From Thermodesulfobacteriota bacterium (GTDB lineage: Bacteria; Desulfobacterota; Desulfobulbia; Desulfobulbales; BM004), in contig JBHPCH010000003.1 of assembly GCA_042576125.1 (NCBI GenBank), forward strand, positions 1 to 49,527: 49,527 nucleotides of DNA. The letters run 5' to 3'. The first letter of the stretch is position 1. The number at the start of each line of letters is the position of its first letter. A program made the position numbers and the translations under genes. Under the pieces are notes generated by a model that searched no databases, had not been told where the DNA came from, and was given only the letters and a program-made list of their open reading frames with translations. This document shows, piece after piece, positions 2 to 49,527 of the stretch.

Positions 2-1183
2 TTTACACCGGGAATGCTTTTTGAATCTTTAAAATTTGAATATGTCGGCCCCATTCCAGGCCATCAACTTGATAATCTGATTGAAACGTTTAAAAATGTC
101 AGGGATTTCGGCCATGGCCCGATATTAATCCATGTAATTACGAAAAAGGGCAAAGGTTATGAACCTGCGGAAAATAATCCCGGCGACTATCATGGCGTGG
201 GACCCTTTAATATTGAAACCGGAGCTCCGGTTCCAGCCGCTGATTCACCCATAACATATACACGCTGTTTTGGAGACACCCTGGTCCACCTGGCCGAGAA
301 AAAACCGAATATTGTTGCTATTACTGCTGCAATGCCTGCTGGGACAGGGCTTAGCCGCTTTGCTGAACGCTTTCCCGATAGATTTTTTGATGTGGGTATT
401 GCAGAGCAGCATGCTGTCACCTTTGCTGCCGGTCTTGCCACGGAAGGCATGCTCCCTGTATTCGCTGTTTATTCAACTTTTTTACAGCGCGGCATGGACC
501 AGGTAATCCATGACGTCTGTTTACAGAACCTGCCTGTAACCTTTGCAATTGACAGGGGCGGCGTTGTTGGTGACGACGGCCCAACCCATCATGGTGTATA
601 CGACTTAACCTATCTTCGCTTCATTCCCAACCTGGTCCTGATGGCACCTAAAGACGAAAATGAAATGCAGCATATGCTTTACACTGCTATCCAGTATAAC
701 GGCCCTGCTGCCTTGCGATATCCCCGTGGTGCCGGAGAAGGCGTTGAACTGTCTGAGGACCTTTGTGAAATACCCATTGGCAAAGGGGAATTATTACGCG
801 AAGGTAAAGACATCCTTTTACTGCCCATAGGCAACCGGGTTTATCCGGCCCTGGAAGCAGCTCGTGGCCTGGAAAAGGTCGGCATTGACGCCGCGGTCAT
901 CAATCCCCGCTTTATCAAACCTCTGGATAGTGAACTGATTACTGAATGGGCTGGAAAAACAGGTAGGGTTGTAACGGTCGAAGACAATGCCCGCATGGGT
1001 GGGTTCGGCAGTGCTGTTCTGGAACTTCTTGCAGGTACAAACCTTTCCAGCGTCAAGGTTACTATTCTTGGTTATGGGGATAGATACCTGGAACACGGCA
1101 CCCAGGAAATACTCTGGCACAAGGGTAAAATTGACATTCCTGCTATTACGAATGCAGCCATGGAATTGATGGATGCGCCTTGA
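2..1183 (+). CDS. dxs: 1-deoxy-D-xylulose-5-phosphate synthase, 5'-truncated by window edge
   Basis: [57 protein letters not shown] motifs; frame is open from base 2. Confidence 0.96.
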
Positions 1184-8370: not shown

Positions 8371-9624
8371 TCAATTTGAGTTTAGATAATCTTTAAACAC
8401 ATTATACTTCCGACTCAAATACATTGTTTCAGGTACATTATCATAAAAGTAGTGATATAGTTTAATGCAATCCTTATGGCTAACTTTGATATAATAAGAT
8501 GGTTTTTTTGTGCGATGTTTTCGATGAATAGTAAACTTCTTAAAACCAACACCATATAATCTATCAGCTAACTCAGTAATAAATAATTTTGAACCAGAAA
8601 CGAAATCTCCTCTTAGCTTATCTCTTTGTTTTTCAATGTAAAAAGAACCATCACCATCCCAACAACCTCTTATAAAATGTCTTAAACAGCAATCTGGAAC
8701 AATTGGGAAATTTACTGTTCTGCTTTTTTTTGTATGGAGGCCCAATCTTACAAGTTGTTTAAAAAGATGTTCACTTCTAATATTAAATCGATAGAGTTCA
8801 CCCGCGGTTATCTTTTTGTATTTTTTTTCTTCTGTGAAATAGAGAGTTGCATTAGAATCCATTAAATTCAAAACTTTTTCGAGCAATTCAGGCTCCTTTT
8901 GGCCAATCCCAAAACCTCCAACCGTATTAATTCTTTTAATTAAATACCCATCAGCATAAATTACACCTAAAACATATGCCATTTTAGGATACCAACTATC
9001 AAAAAAAGACTCATTACAGATGATTTTTTGATGTGTAACTGTAATAGTTTCGCCACTAGAGAGAGTTTTGTCGTGTGCTATTTTTCCTTTATCATATGCA
9101 ATAGTTCTGGCTTCTGATTGATTTCTGATTGGGATATTATATTCTTTTAATAAAAGCCTAATACCCTGAGCAGAATATCTTAATTTTTCACCAATCTCTC
9201 GCAGTGATTTACTCTGAATTATATATAGTTCCTGTAGTTGTTCTTTGGTTGGTTTTTCTCGTCTTCTCCTCTCGCCATATGTTGTTTTAATTCTATGATT
9301 TTTTCTATTTTCGAGTTCGTAACATTTTTCACATAAGCCCCTCGCTCTATGCGGCCTCTTTATTGTCTTGCATTTAATACACCTATCATGTTTTAAGGCC
9401 CATTTAGGTTGTTGGTTTGTTGGTTTATTAAGTTCTTTTTTGGAAGATATTTTTTGTTTTTTCTTTCTTGATACTTTGTAAACCTTTCCCGTAGGAACTC
9501 CGTCAGTTTGCGAAACCCTCTCTAAGTCAAACAAGTTTCCTTGTTGGGCTTTTTCTATTTGTTCTTGCTGAGCAATTCGCTTGATTTCAGCAATTATTTT
9601 TTCATAATCTTTATCTTCATTCAT
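8371..9624 (-). CDS. Free-standing double-motif LAGLIDADG endonuclease-like protein with N-terminal Zn finger and HTH
   Basis: AYVLGVIYADG and HFIRGCWDGDG motifs; CIKC...HRARGLCEKC; SLREIGEKLRYSAQGI helix-turn-helix. Confidence 0.82.
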   Translation of the reverse strand: MNEDKDYEKIIAEIKRIAQQEQIEKAQQGNLFDLERVSQTDGVPTGKVYKVSRKKKQKISSKKELNKPTNQQPKWALKHDRCIKCKTIKRPHRARGLCEKCYELENRKNHRIKTTYGERRRREKPTKEQLQELYIIQSKSLREIGEKLRYSAQGIRLLLKEYNIPIRNQSEARTIAYDKGKIAHDKTLSSGETITVTHQKIICNESFFDSWYPKMAYVLGVIYADGYLIKRINTVGGFGIGQKEPELLEKVLNLMDSNATLYFTEEKKYKKITAGELYRFNIRSEHLFKQLVRLGLHTKKSRTVNFPIVPDCCLRHFIRGCWDGDGSFYIEKQRDKLRGDFVSGSKLFITELADRLYGVGFKKFTIHRKHRTKKPSYYIKVSHKDCIKLYHYFYDNVPETMYLSRKYNVFKDYLNSN

Positions 9625-32680: not shown

Positions 32681-33136
32681 AGTAAAACCTCCATGTAATA
32701 AATTATTGTTAAGAACGAGTCAAATGACCAGTTATGCCTTAAATGGTCGGCCAAATAAAAAAATCAACCGACAGGTATTACGTCCATAATCTATTGATTT
32801 TATTAGGCCAGGTTAATGATTGCGAGACTTTTTGCGTAATCATTAAAATTGGCAATCTTCGACAGGACGATTTTCCACTAACAAAAACTATTCCCCTCTA
32901 ATTCAACCCAATTTTTTTGTCAATAAAAAAATCGATCCCATATGAGTAAAAACACCTATTCAGCCCAAAAGAAGAAAAGCAAAGGGATTTAGCTGTTGCC
33001 TTGCATTTCCTTTCATATTAGATTGTCGGACCTACAGAACCTATGTAATCATTGCAGATGAGGCGGGCAATTTTTTATATGATATTATAATGAAGCATAT
33101 TTGCTCAAAATATTACTCTCTTATTAATATAGACTT

Positions 33137-43454: not shown

Positions 43455-44081
43455 TTACTCTTTTAAATCAAACCACCCTTTTTTCCACGGAATAAGCATG
43501 GGAACTTTTTTACGATACTCAAGATAAGGTTCTCCTATCTCATGAATCAGCTTTTTTTCTTCCAGGAATGTACCAATAATTAAATATGCAGTCAGAATAA
43601 TCTTTGAAACCAGTGATACATCGGATATCGGACCGAATGCCCAGACCAGAAAAATTGCACCGCTATACCATGGATGCCGGACATATTGCAGGATACCTGT
43701 AGTGTTAAAATTCATGGCTTCTATTTTTCTATCTCCCCGCATCTCATCTATCTGTTTTATGCCAAGAAAATATTGCATATCAAACACCCGATATCCTCCG
43801 TAGAAGAGAACAAAAGAGGCCAGGTACATACCGAATTTAAGTAAAGGCCACGGGCCGGACCAGGAAAAAATTATTTGTTCCTTAAGAAGTTGTTGATAGA
43901 CAACCACGGGGATTAATGTGAGAATACTGAAAGAATTATAAGCCAATCTGTAATAGGCAAATTTTATACCCCAGATTTCCTCCATCCTGGCAGTAAAAGA
44001 CCTGCTTATAAGCAAACTGTGCAAACTGCACCAGAGAGCCCAAAGTAAGGCCAAGATACCAATTGAATAGAGCTTATTCAT
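43455..44081 (-). CDS. NnrU/ICMT-like membrane protein
   Basis: LHSLL, YRLAYN, VRHPWY, EEKKL...GEPY.EY..KVPML.P. Confidence 0.8.
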   Translation of the reverse strand: MNKLYSIGILALLWALWCSLHSLLISRSFTARMEEIWGIKFAYYRLAYNSFSILTLIPVVVYQQLLKEQIIFSWSGPWPLLKFGMYLASFVLFYGGYRVFDMQYFLGIKQIDEMRGDRKIEAMNFNTTGILQYVRHPWYSGAIFLVWAFGPISDVSLVSKIILTAYLIIGTFLEEKKLIHEIGEPYLEYRKKVPMLIPWKKGWFDLKE

Positions 44082-44244
44082 TTATCGTCACGGATTCAGG
44101 CAAATAAAAATTAGAGATAATTAATAATTTGACATCTTGCTTCATTCTCAATATTTATTAAAAAAAATATTAATCCCGGACTACAACGTTTACTAATTAA
44201 AACCACACTGAATAATAAAACCGACCTTCAGGTGAAAAACAACC

Positions 44245-44661
44245 ATGCTCACCATCAGCAGTAAAAGCAGATACGGCATAGCAGCACTCCTTGCTCTTGC
44301 TGAATTCTATAATTCCGGCCTCCTGCAGATAAAGGACATTGCTTCCCGCTGCGATATTCCCCATCAGTACCTTGAACAAATATTCAACCGGCTCGGGAAA
44401 ACAGGTCTTTTGAAGAGCACCAGGGGTAAAAATGGGGGGTATGAGCTCGCTAAACCACCCGAAAAAATCACCGTATTGGAAATCGTAAACACCCTTGAAG
44501 GTGATATTGAGTTTGTTCCAAAATCTGACAGTACTAATGATGTCATTGTTGAACTTTTTCAGGATGCAGAAAATAATCTTAAAAAAGTTCTTTCTGTCAG
44601 TCTTGCTGATCTCGTTTCAAAACAGGAGTCATTGCAGGAAAATGTTATCTACAACATTTAA
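44245..44661 (+). CDS. Rrf2-family transcriptional regulator (CymR-like, lacks the IscR Cys triad)
   Basis: SKSRYG, YLEQIF..L, STRG.NGGY.LA. Confidence 0.93.
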   Translation: MLTISSKSRYGIAALLALAEFYNSGLLQIKDIASRCDIPHQYLEQIFNRLGKTGLLKSTRGKNGGYELAKPPEKITVLEIVNTLEGDIEFVPKSDSTNDVIVELFQDAENNLKKVLSVSLADLVSKQESLQENVIYNI

Positions 44662-44811
44662 TTCCTGTTTTCTCTTACCTCTAAAATTCCCTGTTGCAGT
44701 CAAGAAAAAACACATATCTCTAGCCCTTTAATTAACCACAGTCCGACTATATATAATATGACCTTTGGTTTTTTTATGGTTCTTTCTTGACTTTTCCTGC
44801 CCCATGCTTTA

Positions 44812-44836
44812 TTAGTTGACTAAGTTGATCAGATTA
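44812..44836 (+). promoter_or_regulatory. Candidate Rrf2 operator upstream of thiS
   Basis: TTAGTTGACTAAGTTGATCAGATTA partially resembles IscR/CymR-type 25-bp sites. Confidence 0.35.
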
Positions 44837-44902
44837 GTAATGTTAAATTGTTCGATACAATTTTTGAGCAATTTATTGATTACACAAATGACAGGAGACA
44901 CC

Positions 44903-45115
44903 ATGCAGATAACGGTAAATGGAGAATCCAGTGAGTTTAAGGATATTGAGATAAATCTTTCAAAACTTCTGGAATTAAGAAAGGTGGAATCGCCTGAAAT
45001 GGTCGCGGTCCAGCTGAATGGTCAATTTATAGAAATGAACAGTTACTCCTCTACCTATCTTAAGTCAGGTGACACTATTGAATTTCTTTTTTTCATGGGG
45101 GGTGGCACCAAATGA
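44903..45115 (+). CDS. thiS: ThiS-family sulfur carrier with masked C-terminus (GGG-TK)
   Basis: MQITVNG...VAVQLNG...GDTIEFLFFMGGGTK; AGGAG RBS before ATG 44903. Confidence 0.9.
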   Translation: MQITVNGESSEFKDIEINLSKLLELRKVESPEMVAVQLNGQFIEMNSYSSTYLKSGDTIEFLFFMGGGTK

Positions 45116-46344
45116 CAGGATTCGCCACCAGTGCGATTCATGGAGCACAATTAAAAACTGATGTCCATGGCAGCCTTAGAACGCCAGTCTATGATACTGT
45201 GGCTTTTGAATTTGAAAGTGCAAGAGATATTAATATGGCTTTTGCCGGTAGCATTCCTGCCCACACCTATTCGCGCATATCCAATCCCACTGTTGAGGAT
45301 TTTGAGCAGCGTATCCGTCTCATAAGTGGCGGCTCAGCAGTAGTTGCCGTATCTTCCGGCATGGCAGCTATAACCAATGTCATACTGACACTTGCCGAAG
45401 CCGGGACCAATATAGTCACAAGTAAACACCTGTTCGGAAACACTTTATCCCTGTTTGAAAAAACCCTTAAACCCTGGGGACTGGAAGTCAGGTATGCTGA
45501 CATGATGAATCCGGTAGAGATCCAGCGTGCTATTGACCAAAACACGCGGGCCGTTTTTCTTGAAAGTATTACAAATCCCCAGCTTGAAGTTGCAGATTTT
45601 AAGGCAATATCGAAAATAACTTCTGATGAATCCATTCCACTCATAGTAGACGGAACAGTTACCACGCCCTATATCTTTCGTTCCAAAAAATTCGGAGTAA
45701 ATATAGAAGTACTTTCCAGCACAAAATATATTTCAGGCGGTGCTACCTCCATTGGAGGCGTGATTATCGACAACGGTAACTTTGACTGGCACAAGTCTCC
45801 CAGATTAAAACCCTGGGCAAATAAAATGGGTTCTTTTGCCCTGATAGGCTCATTACGAAGAGAAATATTCAGGAATTTAGGTTCATGCCTGGCTCCGCAT
45901 CATGCCTATCTCCAAAGCCTTGGGCTGGAAACCCTGAGCTTGCGTATTGATAAAAGCTGCTCCAATGCCCTTGCCCTGGCAGATTTCCTCCAACACCATA
46001 AAAGGGTTGCATCAGTGAATTACCCCGGTCTTGCGGAATCAGAATCTCACAAATTTGCTTCAGAACAGTTTGGCAATCACTATGGAGGCATACTGACTTT
46101 TGACCTTGAAAGTCGTGAGGCCTGTTTTGCTCTACTTGACAATTTGCGGCTCATCAAAAGAGCTACAAATGTTAATGATAATAAAACGCTTATCCTGCAT
46201 CCGGCATCAACAATTTTCTGCGAGTACCCGAATGAAGTCCTCAAAGACATAGGGGTTCGTCAGACCATGATCCGTCTTTCAGCCGGAATTGAAGATATTG
46301 AGGACTTAAGAATTGATCTGGAAAAGGGGCTTGCTGCATTATGA
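45112..46344 (+). CDS. metY: O-acetylhomoserine aminocarboxypropyltransferase / Cys-Met metabolism PLP enzyme
   Basis: YSRISNPT, SSGMAAI, ESITNP, SSTKYISG (PLP Lys), HPAST, IRLSAGIE. Confidence 0.85.
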   Translation: MTGFATSAIHGAQLKTDVHGSLRTPVYDTVAFEFESARDINMAFAGSIPAHTYSRISNPTVEDFEQRIRLISGGSAVVAVSSGMAAITNVILTLAEAGTNIVTSKHLFGNTLSLFEKTLKPWGLEVRYADMMNPVEIQRAIDQNTRAVFLESITNPQLEVADFKAISKITSDESIPLIVDGTVTTPYIFRSKKFGVNIEVLSSTKYISGGATSIGGVIIDNGNFDWHKSPRLKPWANKMGSFALIGSLRREIFRNLGSCLAPHHAYLQSLGLETLSLRIDKSCSNALALADFLQHHKRVASVNYPGLAESESHKFASEQFGNHYGGILTFDLESREACFALLDNLRLIKRATNVNDNKTLILHPASTIFCEYPNEVLKDIGVRQTMIRLSAGIEDIEDLRIDLEKGLAAL

Positions 46345-46475
46345 TTGTCGGCATCGCAGATAGGGAACGAAGTGAGACTTCGAAACACACGATACGGACA
46401 GATATTGCATCTGCACTATATCGATATTACAAGACCCTGTTACTGAACAAGAAACTTTTGAGGATTGAAGCATGA
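46341..46475 (+). CDS. 44-aa ORF in repeat unit 1
   Basis: MIVGIADRERSETSKHTIRTDIASALYRYYKTLLLNKKLLRIEA*; ATGA overlaps at both ends. Confidence 0.45.
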   Translation: MIVGIADRERSETSKHTIRTDIASALYRYYKTLLLNKKLLRIEA

Positions 46476-46803
46476 TTGTCGGCATCGTAAACAGCACGAT
46501 GCGGCCAGGTATCTCGCCTGTGGTTTAAAGGAATTACAAGGCCCTGTTATACTGAACGAGAAACTTTTGAGGATTGAAGCATGATTGTCGGCATCGTAAA
46601 CAGCACGATGCGGCCAGGTATTTCACCTGTGGTTTAAAGGAATTACAAGGCCCTGTTATACTGAACGAGAAACTTTTGAGGATTGAAGCATGATTGTCGG
46701 CATCGTAAACAGCACGATGCGGACAGGTATTTCGCCTGTGGTTTAAAAGAATTACAAGGCCCTGTTACCTAACGAGAAACTTTTGAGGATTGAAGTATGA
46801 TTG
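46341..46803 (+). repeat. Four-unit tandem array (131, 109, 109, 107 bp) ending in the thiF start
   Basis: Units start ATGATTGTCGGCATCG at 46341, 46472, 46581, 46690 and end GAAACTTTTGAGGATTGAAG(C/T); units 2 and 3 differ at 2 of 109 nt. Confidence 0.95.
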
Positions 46804-47627
46804 ATTTTACTGAAAACCAGCTTGAACGGTACAGCCGCCATATTTTGCTGGACGATGTGGGCGTCGACGGACAGGAGAAATTGCTCGAGGCAAAGGTATT
46901 GATCGTTGGTGCCGGCGGATTGGGATCTCCTGCAGCGCTTTATCTTGCCGCTGCCGGAGTGGGAACAATCGGCATCGTGGACAACGATTGCGTGGAAATG
47001 TCAAACCTGCAGCGCCAGATAGCCCATTTCACCAAAGATCTCAATAGTCCAAAAGTGGAATCTGCTGCTGAAAAGATGCGGGCAATCAACCCGGATATAA
47101 CGGTAAAAACATACCAGGATTTTCTCTGCGCTGATAATATTACTTCTATTATTAACGGTTATGATTTTGTTTTAGACGGTACAGATAACTTCCCTACAAA
47201 ATTCCTGGTCAACGATGCATGTGTCTTTAAAGGAATTCCTTTCTCCCATGGCGGTATCCTGCGGTTTAACGGGCAGACAATGACTGTTATACCTGGCATA
47301 ACAGCCTGTTACCGCTGTTCCTTCAGGAAACCGCCGCCGCCAGACGCCGTGCCTTCCTGTGCCCAGGCAGGTGTTCTCGGCGCTATCGCAGGAATGCTTG
47401 GTACTATTCAGGCAGCAGAGGCCCTGAAGTTCATTACCGGCACCGGAGAACTTCTTACAAATGGATTACTGAGCTTTGACGCAAAAAACATGTTGTTTAG
47501 AAAAATCAAACTGAATAAACAGAAAAATTGTCCTGTTTGCGGCACAGAGCCGACGATTACCGAACTCGTTGATATTAAACAGACTGCTTGTGAATTAACA
47601 ACCACCCATATAAGAGGTGGATTATAG
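46797..47627 (+). CDS. ThiF/MoeB-family E1-like adenylyltransferase
   Basis: RYSRHI, VGAGGLGSP, SNLQRQ, DGTDNF, CYRC, PSCAQAGVLG, CPVC. Confidence 0.94.
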   Translation: MIDFTENQLERYSRHILLDDVGVDGQEKLLEAKVLIVGAGGLGSPAALYLAAAGVGTIGIVDNDCVEMSNLQRQIAHFTKDLNSPKVESAAEKMRAINPDITVKTYQDFLCADNITSIINGYDFVLDGTDNFPTKFLVNDACVFKGIPFSHGGILRFNGQTMTVIPGITACYRCSFRKPPPPDAVPSCAQAGVLGAIAGMLGTIQAAEALKFITGTGELLTNGLLSFDAKNMLFRKIKLNKQKNCPVCGTEPTITELVDIKQTACELTTTHIRGGL

Positions 47628-47677
47628 GATGACCCTAAAATGTTTTTGTTTCCACAGTAATAAAATGTTTTTTATAC

Positions 47678-47847
47678 GCCATTTCACAAAGCCGAGCAGC
47701 GGAAAAATAACCGGAATAGCGCGAGGACTGTCTGAGCGAAGCGAGTTTCGCAGCGCCCGGTTATTTTGAGCAGCGCAGGGCAGTCTGCTATCAGCAGACC
47801 AAGTGAACGGCTGCTTTTTTGGTTCGTTTTGGGCAAACAAAATGAAC
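47678..47847 (-). repeat. ~170-bp structured dispersed repeat, copy 2
   Basis: Inverted homolog of 40855-41033. Confidence 0.85.
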
Positions 47848-47990
47848 GTAAAAAAGATTTAAAACAATATATTACTTTAATATTTCGACTTCACTTCATT
47901 TATCAACAACTTACCCGCATAGCATAGCTTGGACCCACCAGCTAAACTGGTGGTTTAAGGTTTATAATTAAGAAATGAACAGGTAACTGC

Positions 47991-48404
47991 ATGATGCTGA
48001 AAATAAAACAGGATATAATTGATAGAATTGTTGCACAGGGGCTGCATGATGCCCCACTTGAAGCGTGCGGTTATCTTGCCGAAAAAGACGGTTTAATCTG
48101 TAAACATTTTGAATTGACCAACATTGATAAGTCTCCAGTTCATTTTTCAATGGATCCGGCAGAACAGTTTGCTGCTCTCAATGAATGCAGAAATCTTGGG
48201 TTGAAGATCCGGGCTGTCTATCACAGTCATCCTGAAACACCTGCCAGGCCCTCTAATGAGGATATCAGGCTGGCCTATGACCCATCACTCAGCTATGTAA
48301 TTGTCTCCCTTGCCGAGACTCCCCCAAGCATAAAATCCTTTATTATACAAAAAGGTGTAGTGGCCCCTGAACCGCTTGAAATTTTTAAAAATGGGAAAAA
48401 ATAA
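47991..48404 (+). CDS. JAMM/M67 metalloprotease
   Basis: PLEACGYL, YHSHPETPARPSNED. Confidence 0.93.
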   Translation: MMLKIKQDIIDRIVAQGLHDAPLEACGYLAEKDGLICKHFELTNIDKSPVHFSMDPAEQFAALNECRNLGLKIRAVYHSHPETPARPSNEDIRLAYDPSLSYVIVSLAETPPSIKSFIIQKGVVAPEPLEIFKNGKK

Positions 48405-48413
48405 GGAAGAAAC

Positions 48414-48656
48414 ATGGAAACTCAAATCAAAGCAGATGTATTTCAAGACTTACGTGGTGTCGGTTGTCCCATGAACCTTGTGAAAACCAAAGTCGCATTC
48501 TCCAAAATGCAATCCGGGCAAATTCTGGGTTTGGTTCTTGACAACGGGCCGCCAATCAACAATGTCCCCCGCTCCGTTATCAGAGAAGGTCATGATATTC
48601 TTTCACAGGAACAACTCGATGATGGCGCCTGGTCCGTTCTGATCCGCAAGGCTTAA
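48414..48656 (+). CDS. TusA-family sulfurtransferase
   Basis: DLRGVGCPMNLVKTK, NVPRS...EGH. Confidence 0.9.
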   Translation: METQIKADVFQDLRGVGCPMNLVKTKVAFSKMQSGQILGLVLDNGPPINNVPRSVIREGHDILSQEQLDDGAWSVLIRKA

Positions 48657-48705
48657 AAAATAGCCATCCCGTTCCATCCCCCCAACCCGGACCTTGCAGG
48701 GCCAT

Positions 48706-48744
48706 AAAAAACTGGTATTGGAATAAGCCAATACCAGTTTTTTT
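48706..48744 (+). terminator. Intrinsic terminator ending the sulfur-carrier operon
   Basis: AAAAAACTGGTATTGG-AATAAG-CCAATACCAGTTTTTT. Confidence 0.85.
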
Positions 48745-48924
48745 CATTGCAAGGCTGTATATCCATATACAGAAAATTATTTTTTATGGTGTTTCCTGTA
48801 AATAGTTTCTATTAAGGTTGTTGAAAATTTTACAAAATCCCACTAAAGGTTCATCCTGAGTTAATAAGCTAATTATAAAAATCAATAATCTTCATAATAT
48901 ATTTTACAATTAAACAACTGGATT

Positions 48925-49527
48925 ATGCCTACTACCGCAACCAACCCCCTTCTCTGGATTATAGGGAGCAGTATACTGATGTGCATCCTGGCTCTTGTCG
49001 GTGCAACTACGCTCTCGTTAAGCGAAAAAACCCTGCAGAAACTTCTCCTGCCCCTCGTTGCCTTATCAGCAGGCTCCCTGCTGGGGGGGGCTTTTTTTCA
49101 TATGATACCTGAATCCATTGAAAAAACAGGGGATGATCTATCTGTATACATTTATGTTGTCGCTGGATTTACTTTCTTCCTGCTTCTGGAGCAATTGCTC
49201 CACTGGCACCATTGTCACCGGGAAGAAACAGCCTGTAAAAATAAAAAACCTCAAACATATCTCATTTTAATTGGGGATGGCATCCACAATTTTATCGGTG
49301 GCATTGCAGTTGCCGGCACCTTTCTTATTGATATTCGTCTCGGCATCTCCACCTGGCTTGCAGCTGCCGCACATGAAGTGCCACAGGAGATAGGCGATTT
49401 TGCTGTACTGGTCCATGGAGGGTGGTCGAAAAAAAAAGCACTGCTGTTCAACTTGTTATCAGCATCAACCTTCCTTCTGCGGAGATGCTTGATACAGATT
49501 CGCGTATGCGGAAGCGTTCCTCAGTCC
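48925..49527 (+). CDS. ZIP-family metal transporter, runs off window
   Basis: Manual translation: ALSAGSLLGGAFFHMIPE, HWHHCH, GDGIHNFIGG, AHEVPQEIGDF; absent from the ORF track because there is no stop. Confidence 0.9.
   Translation, partial: MPTTATNPLLWIIGSSILMCILALVGATTLSLSEKTLQKLLLPLVALSAGSLLGGAFFHMIPESIEKTGDDLSVYIYVVAGFTFFLLLEQLLHWHHCHREETACKNKKPQTYLILIGDGIHNFIGGIAVAGTFLIDIRLGISTWLAAAAHEVPQEIGDFAVLVHGGWSKKKALLFNLLSASTFLLRRCLIQIRVCGSVPQS

Follow-up and report, generated by a model that had tools for sequence, protein, structure and literature searches.

The metY-thiF junction

The stretch of DNA analysed here (the window) comprises 49,527 nucleotides of contig JBHPCH010000003.1 from a Thermodesulfobacteriota bacterium (assembly GCA_042576125.1), and it contains a sulfur-carrier operon in which four similar units separate metY from thiF. 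A first-pass annotation, made from the sequence alone, had described the units at 46341-46803 as a tandem array of short open reading frames (ORFs), each with its own ribosome-binding site, and had listed a peptide array among its explanations. Our analysis indicates that the array very probably consists of four head-to-tail copies of a small, non-autonomous mobile repeat, similar to a miniature inverted-repeat transposable element (MITE), that were amplified locally. The metY gene (45112-46344) encodes a pyridoxal phosphate enzyme of the O-acetylhomoserine sulfhydrylase family (Pfam PF01053, Cys_Met_Meta_PP, E 3.6e-106), and thiF (46797-47627) encodes a ThiF/MoeB-type E1-like adenylyltransferase (Pfam PF00899, E 7.7e-86). 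Both lie on the forward strand, as do all features of the window given below, and the start of thiF is now 452 nt from metY.

Everything that the first-pass annotation had said about the sequence of this interval held at its coordinates when compared with the ORF list and the sequence. The four units, the ATGA overlaps, the GAGGA placed 7 nt before ATG and the 18-residue ORFs were borne out by the sequence, the ORF list and Tandem Repeats Finder, the last of which placed a single array, with a score of 672, at 46426-46803 (3.5 copies of period 109, with 95% matches). Such repetition is well outside what chance would give. A fifth ATGATTG had been read as the start of thiF, and the gene does begin there, at 46797.

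The interval 46341-46803 opens a single base ahead of the first copy of the motif TGATTG and closes with the last copy. The first copy (46342-46347) includes the metY stop codon TGA and the last (46798-46803) falls within codons 1-3 of thiF; both were recognised by comparing filled with empty sites in related genomes. Further copies separate units 1 and 2 (46473-46478, placed by the sequence and the anatomy of the period), units 2 and 3 (46582-46587) and units 3 and 4 (46691-46696), the latter two placed by the sequence. Between these motifs lie the element copies, located with nhmmer and with a covariance model of the repeat (R1): copy 1 (46348-46472, 125 nt, also matched by a regular expression), copy 2 (46479-46581, 103 nt), copy 3 (46588-46690, 103 nt, unlike copy 2 at 2 positions) and copy 4 (46697-46797, 101 nt, delimited also by the sequence and the site comparison). 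An element of 103 nt and a duplication of 6 nt make up the 109-bp period, and the elements of this array range from 101 to 125 nt. Copy 1 has the long-loop variant of the 5' hairpin, P1, which recurs on contig C2 of the window's own genome (G000; genomes and contigs are given by G and C numbers). The last base of copy 4 is the A of the thiF ATG, and its 3' end has the GAGGA that serves thiF; it is likely that thiF depends on this last GAGGA.

Each unit also contains a short ORF, which we regard as a by-product of the repeat. In the ORF list, copy 1 is spanned by an ORF of 44 codons (46341-46475) whose ATG overlaps the metY stop codon and whose own stop overlaps the next ATG at 46472, in both cases as ATGA; its product matched no Pfam family. 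Copies 2-4 contain ORFs of 18 codons (46472-46528, 46581-46637 and 46690-46746), each with GAGGA and 7 nt before its ATG, and these frames stop 50-52 nt before the next ATG. The start of thiF lies in the same ATGATTG context. Two positions distinguish unit 3 from unit 2 (ATC/ATT and TCG/TCA), both silent in the 18-residue frame, and all four units are mutually distinct in sequence.

A dispersed repeat family

The window's own genome is a fragmented short-read bin of 188 contigs (2.5 Mb, 73% complete). When it was searched with two of the units, other contigs were matched through the core that had appeared to be coding. The spacers concerned are unrelated; they lie downstream of rplM and upstream of tRNA genes, and a gene-poor one holds two copies. 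Iterated nhmmer searches converged on 27 copies of about 100 nt in G000, the four array copies included. A fuzzy regular expression for both arms of the core palindrome gave 21 matches in the same genome (both strands counted) as compared with 0 in each of five shuffled genomes. In an order-level sample, model R1 matched 20 of 41 genomes; among the other 12 genomes of the genus, 11 had 6-50 matches each and the twelfth (61% complete) had none, and its scores were weaker in some other families of the order. These data show that the array unit is a member of a dispersed, structured intergenic repeat family of about 100 nt and is not a gene. Among the results that a literature search listed, no paper linked MITEs with Desulfobulbia, and the family in these uncultured bacteria is apparently undescribed.

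Tandem arrangement of the family is not confined to the metY-thiF junction, as head-to-tail pairs occur on contigs C1, C26 and C8 of G000 and several more in G004, G008 and G011. In the pair on C1 (18651-18843, reverse strand) the outer flanking 6-mers are identical and the middle one differs, as expected if a dimer had moved as one unit. On contig C87 of G000 the repeats belong to a divergent subfamily whose hairpin shows compensatory changes; they form tandem pairs with a 104-nt period at 983-1117 (reverse strand) and 9436-9570 (forward strand). These pairs are inverted near both ends of a 9.6-kb contig, an arrangement that resembles a composite or bracketed segment. The window itself holds a fifth, solitary copy of the family in a long AT-rich spacer at 32732-32849 (R1, 55 bits, E 6.6e-11; also found with nhmmer), and a very weak R1 match (E 0.34) lies about 280 nt downstream of it, at 33012-33130.

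Insertion with target duplication

Filled and empty orthologous sites could be compared at three loci: metY-thiF, rplM-rpsI and lon-tRNA. At metY-thiF, two copies of TGATTG enclose the element where the site is filled, and they match the empty site; in 9 of 19 two-gene loci the site is empty, and the genes share only an ATGA, after which comes TTG or a close variant. The rplM-rpsI spacer is filled in G000 and G006, where the element lies between two copies of AGATTG, and holds a divergent copy in G004; it is empty, with a spacer of 29-34 nt, in G009, G008, G005, G002 and G012. This comparison leaves out G001 and G010, with spacers of 128 nt and 60 nt, respectively. At lon-tRNA the element lies between two copies of TTTTTG in G000, G006, G001 and G004, and the site is empty in G011, G003, G005 and G008; G010 has a different spacer. 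Because the duplicated words differ among the loci and yet each matches its own empty site, they represent a true target duplication, about 6 bp long and ending in TTG. This TTG is also the foot of hairpin P1, and the last base of the element is A in most copies of the family.

Structure and orientation of the repeat

Secondary structure was assessed by counting the pairs of a stated structure on 22 re-aligned short-loop copies; for the 28-row alignment, in which long-loop variants broke the columns, RNAalifold returned no structure. Hairpin P1, with 10 counted pairs around a constant mismatch, was 86.8% paired and showed compensatory changes at two pairs, and the second hairpin was 68.8% paired. 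The whole structure was paired in 77.9% of cells, compared with at most 44% when the partners were slid by 1-3 columns, and the observed pairing or covariation score was reached in 0 of 500 shuffles, although the relatedness of the copies inflates such figures. From the alignment we take the support as good for P1 and moderate for the second helix. An extra stem lies within the P1 loop of some copies, unit 1 among them. A single unit folded alone was not unusually stable (z = -0.8).

The family leans towards one orientation. The downstream ORF is co-oriented with 23 of the 26 family copies in G000, or about 17 of 20 independent loci, and in co-directional spacers of this genome 8 copies are sense and 1 is antisense. 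Of 29 loci examined in three relatives, all but 3 had an ORF downstream, and in 20 of these 26 it was co-oriented with the repeat; co-directional spacers had 11 sense and 4 antisense copies. These loci are partly orthologous and the ORF calls behind all of the counts are crude. From this lean it seems that transcripts tolerate one orientation better. Most copies in G000 lie 30-570 nt from the next gene and, by the same crude calls, metY-thiF is the sole one of about 20 independent loci where the element sits on a start codon.

The imperfect palindrome of the family keeps a constant mismatch, its structure is conserved and its orientation is biased; such traits would also be seen in a palindromic element of the repetitive extragenic palindromic (REP) type, spread by a REP-associated tyrosine transposase (RAYT), or in a family of small RNA genes spreading by another route, in which case the family would not be a cut-and-paste MITE. 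Genes for Y1 (HUH) transposases are indeed present in two well-assembled relatives, with 12 matches in G010 and 8 in G004. However, no element was found within 1.5 kb of the 4 Y1 genes sampled from these 20 matches, and G011, which is 84% complete, has 50 element matches and no Y1 match; no Y1 transposase was matched in G000 either. The flanking repeats also covary with the target at the three loci described above, and insertion of the Y1 type does not produce such repeats. As for small RNA genes, an Rfam scan of 44000-49000 gave 0 matches at E up to 1. We therefore consider it quite unlikely that the family spreads by either of these routes.

Consensus scans for promoters and terminators were at background, with 11 promoter-like sites compared with 9.6 expected and 6 terminator-like sites compared with 4.5 expected. 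A sigma-54 or sigma-70 promoter within the element was considered and was dropped on inspection alone. On contig C12 of G000 (about 33032-33060) the lon-tRNA copy abuts the -35-like box of a putative tRNA promoter, and the box is intact.

The mini-ORFs as candidate peptides

The first-pass annotation had proposed that the units form a peptide array, and they could in principle encode real short peptides that act as precursors akin to ribosomally synthesised and post-translationally modified peptides (RiPPs) or as substrates of ThiF or of the JAB-type peptidase of the cluster. ThiF-family enzymes act on the C-termini of peptides in some RiPP systems, each unit has a good Shine-Dalgarno sequence and an ATG, and the differences between units 2 and 3 are silent only. 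The frames, however, are not conserved in length or end among orthologous insertions. They have 44, 18, 18 and 18 codons here, 38 in G006, 28 in G004 and 15 in G010; in G011 the first unit lacks a start codon, its frame of 10 codons beginning with the non-start triplet ATA, and the second frame has 19. The start column reads ATG in 6 of 22 aligned copies, all six of them at metY-thiF, and a non-start triplet in the other 16, so that the same DNA occurs without a start codon in unrelated spacers such as those after rplM and before tRNA genes.

The column identities give no support for coding. Identity at codon positions 1, 2 and 3 is 0.71, 0.75 and 0.77, showing neither codon periodicity nor relaxation of the third position, and the stretch after the stop codon is nearly as conserved as the ORF (0.65 compared with 0.74). 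The two differences between units 2 and 3, which had been noted as synonymous, are indeed silent in the frame, but both fall in the variable unpaired stretch between the hairpins and are therefore uninformative on coding. Likewise, the resemblance between the read-through of unit 4 and the tail of unit 1 is real and is merely DNA homology between units. The enzyme itself has the core domain only: a single ThiF domain (residues 12-247 of 276) without an extra N-terminal domain, in agreement with the earlier description of a plain ThiF next to peptides without a terminal Asn. Real peptides thus seem extremely improbable, and the peptide array finds no support in the conservation of ORF length, in codon periodicity or in the starts of the copies. 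To judge from these alignments, the mini-ORFs and their ribosome-binding sites appear to be copies of thiF's own start context and not peptide genes.

Copy number in related genomes

The element is present in 7 of the 19 two-gene loci: four copies at the window's own junction, two in G011 and a single copy in each of G006, G004, G010, G001 and G026. The other 12 loci are without it; 9 of these have the bare ATGA overlap and 3 have short unrelated spacers, and they include G003 and G007 of the same genus. Comparison of the metY-thiF spacer in relatives thus gave 0, 1, 2 or 4 units whose mini-ORFs are unconserved, and four is the largest number among these loci. The G001 copy is degenerate (E 2.8e-5). 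In G026, which belongs to another family of the order, a divergent member of 107 nt (locus L022, G026:C22; E 3.6e-5) occupies the identical TGATTG at which metY and thiF overlap, a hint that the junction has been targeted repeatedly or that the element has some target preference. Of 80 wider thiF loci, 3 have the element in one copy each, and two of the three are the same records as G006 and G010. The pattern within the genus may reflect either one insertion followed by precise losses through the flanking repeat, or repeated insertions into the same TGATTG.

Since the window comes from a fragmented short-read bin, the tandem array could be an artefact in which assembly mis-expanded a single unit, and no public contig spans the array among the four runs compared, all of which gave short contigs. 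Separate public contigs nevertheless bridge units 1 and 2 (181 nt, 2 differences) and units 3 and 4 (122 nt, 0 differences); one run behind these contigs may be the source sample. The independent assembly of G011 has two units at the same site and tandem pairs occur at other loci. The mutual distinctness of the four units argues for at least four of them, and an artefact appears very improbable.

Variation in copy number could also mean that the spacer is selected to act in cis. Copies of the hairpin, the Shine-Dalgarno sequence and the short ORF would then set the supply of ribosomes to thiF after metY, or stabilise the upstream message, and their number would tune the ratio of MetY to ThiF, akin to the annotation's proposal of a copy-number tuner of thiF translation. 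The element ends in GAGGA at metY-thiF in 5 of the 6 same-genus genomes that carry it there (G000, G006, G004, G010 and G001; G011 has GAAGA), and in no other aligned copy of the family, most of which read TACGA. In addition, the frame of unit 1 is open and ATGA-coupled at both ends, the frame in the single unit of G006 runs through 38 codons to a stop 5 nt short of the thiF ATG, copy number differs among species and the family is co-oriented with downstream genes. Against such a role, G003 and G007 of the same genus have the bare overlap, and early stops end the frames of units 2-4 and those of G004, G010 and G011. The internal starts are also poorly placed: each internal ATG is followed after about 4 nt by hairpin P1, and 65-nt windows around these starts fold at -12.7 to -18.1 kcal/mol compared with -7.5 kcal/mol for thiF's own start. 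Relay translation is therefore not obviously favoured, and from the predicted folding we expect the internal starts to be weak and little used. A selected cis-acting spacer is unlikely on this evidence.

Proposed origin of the array

The reading that we favour, a locally amplified MITE-like repeat, can be followed from the empty sites to the array. In the ancestral state metY and thiF overlapped in ATGA. One copy of the element entered at the TGATTG that takes in the metY stop and the beginning of thiF, and this target was duplicated. The upstream TGATTG keeps the metY stop and, with the preceding A, makes an ATG whose frame runs on into the element; at the other end, the downstream TGATTG and the terminal A of the element rebuild the thiF ATG. 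Duplication at the ATGA overlap and the terminal A account both for the start of the first mini-ORF and for the restored start of thiF. The 3' end of the element now reads as the Shine-Dalgarno sequence (GAGGA) of thiF, and the simplest reading is that, after the insertion uncoupled thiF from metY, this end was selected for that role or was pre-adapted to it. Later the unit of element and duplication was probably amplified on the spot, whether through unequal exchange or slippage across the flanking repeats or through renewed insertion at the same target. Amplification would have copied the GAGGA along, and every later unit repeats the metY-side junction. The annotation's alternative of neutral amplification of a decayed linker ORF comes closest to this evidence; what was amplified, however, is a mobile structured intergenic repeat.

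Several observations weigh against this account. A search of G000 (73% complete) with the end motifs found no autonomous partner or transposase with matching ends, and no credible pair of ends 0.5-8 kb apart. The consensus inverted repeat of 11 nt is subterminal and imperfect, lying 7-9 nt inside each end with poorly matching outermost bases, and the label MITE leans mainly on the target duplications. A script for exact-match flanking repeats, run on all copies, gave a mean of 4.6 compared with 3.3 for the control, whose maximum was also 4.6; since this measure is noisy, we relied on the filled and empty sites for the insertion, and mobility is read from these footprints. The conserved secondary structure and the orientation bias hint at selection at the RNA level, so that a purely selfish or neutral repeat may be too simple a picture. 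Unit 1 differs from units 2-4 by more than the indel in its loop, and the history may therefore involve two insertions. Finally, the number of copies in the array rests on a short-read assembly.

If this account is right, the apparent peptide or RiPP array next to ThiF can be set aside as a false lead, however tempting. A mobile repeat can produce convincing-looking genes complete with ribosome-binding sites, and members of this family would otherwise be liable to mis-annotation as small ORFs. The metY-thiF junction, with 0, 1, 2 or 4 units in close relatives, offers a natural series on how insertions into overlapping stop and start codons are tolerated. What it illustrates would be ordinary repeat biology with a twist, in that the start signal of thiF was copied along, and not a new peptide system.

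The surrounding gene cluster

The annotation had placed the array in a sulfur-carrier operon, and Pfam matches to Rrf2, ThiS, Cys_Met_Meta_PP, ThiF, Prok-JAB and TusA agree with this. At the head of the cluster lies a gene for an Rrf2-family regulator (44245-44661; PF02082, E 1.2e-32), followed by a gene for a ThiS-like sulfur carrier (44903-45115; PF02597, E 2.3e-9; also in the ORF list). The stop codon of the latter shares an ATGA with the metY start in the ORF list, which shows that the operon is built on tight coupling. Downstream of thiF are genes for a JAB/MPN-type peptidase (Prok-JAB; 47991-48404; PF14464, E 4.1e-22) and a TusA-type sulfurtransferase (48414-48656; PF01206, E 3.7e-19). 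Presumably this set of ThiS, MetY, ThiF, JAB and TusA resembles the HcyS pathway of Wolinella. The ThiS-like carrier ends in Gly-Gly followed by Thr-Lys; with these two residues after the Gly-Gly, its tail would need trimming before thiocarboxylate formation, presumably by the JAB peptidase of the cluster. A carrier trimmed in this way would fit an HcyS-type pathway.

The spacer between thiF and the JAB gene (47628-47990, 363 nt) has short ORFs only, with no copy of the repeat and no Rfam match. The counterpart of this spacer in G004 does have a repeat copy, and a third copy lies farther downstream in that cluster (G004:C23 at 113851, 115169 and 117285). Two further thiF/moeB paralogues are present in G000, on C4 (11922-12725) and C42 (13403-14200), 75% and 70% identical to the ThiF of the window, respectively. 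One in-frame stop lies inside each of these matches, which may be shorter or broken genes.

Comparison with known systems

Bacterial MITEs such as the Correia, RUP and ERIC-type elements are small, occur as many dispersed intergenic copies, duplicate their target site, have an inverted repeat near their ends, fold as RNA when transcribed and can donate expression signals. The repeat described here is similarly short (below about 300 bp), non-coding and dispersed, and target-site duplication is seen at three loci. A fold in its transcribed RNA and a capacity to supply neighbouring genes with expression signals are further points in common. It differs in that its 11-nt inverted repeat is short and subterminal, in that no parent insertion sequence was identified in the end-motif search of G000, and in that its target always ends in TTG, which joins the base of the 5' hairpin.

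REP sequences and bacterial interspersed mosaic elements (BIMEs) are likewise imperfect palindromes of intergenic and intra-operon spacers, sometimes clustered and with possible effects on mRNA stability. Unlike those that move with a RAYT, the present repeat has target duplications, is found in tens and not hundreds of copies, and shows no association with Y1 genes at the 4 sampled loci. The target duplications and the lack of this association make a REP/RAYT system unlikely.

With microcin C loci, which have an MccB-like ThiF, the array shares a short ORF directly upstream of a gene of the ThiF family. Its peptides, of 10-44 residues, end in Val or Ala and not in Asn, and the ORF is unconserved in relatives; the ThiF is without the extra N-terminal domain and the operon is a sulfur-carrier set. 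A microcin C-like RiPP locus was accordingly rejected, as it failed on every feature tested (terminal Asn, N-terminal domain and conservation of the precursor).

The closest likeness is to the MIRUs (mycobacterial interspersed repetitive units). In the passages of a 2025 review that deal with them (PMC12548453), MIRUs are short, mobile, dispersed repeats between the genes of operons that form tandem arrays of variable copy number. They insert at start codons, and a 4-nt overlap couples their internal ORF to the gene downstream, which keeps them harmless (PMC12548453, citing Supply et al. 1997). Set against these passages, unit 1 of the present array is likewise ATGA-coupled at both ends, and the units are likewise tandem in an operon spacer, numbering 0, 1, 2 or 4 among the 19 loci. 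The differences are several. The host phylum is another one and the likeness drawn here is one of description; coupling is seen in unit 1 only, units 2-4 stopping after 18 codons and 50-52 nt short of the next ATG; there is no general preference for start codons, most copies lying tens to hundreds of nt from the next ORF by our crude calls; and the Desulfobulbia family has clear target duplications and a strong hairpin.

One may go further and suppose that this repeat independently evolved the MIRU lifestyle: it targets sequences ending in TTG and itself ends in A, and it would enter ATGA overlaps, rebuild the start codon and evolve a ribosome-binding site, the array of 0-4 units becoming an evolvable dial on the ratio of MetY to ThiF in a sulfur-carrier pathway to methionine. 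We hold this extension to be doubtful. The repeat nonetheless appears to work most like the mycobacterial MIRUs of that review, without being a member of their family.

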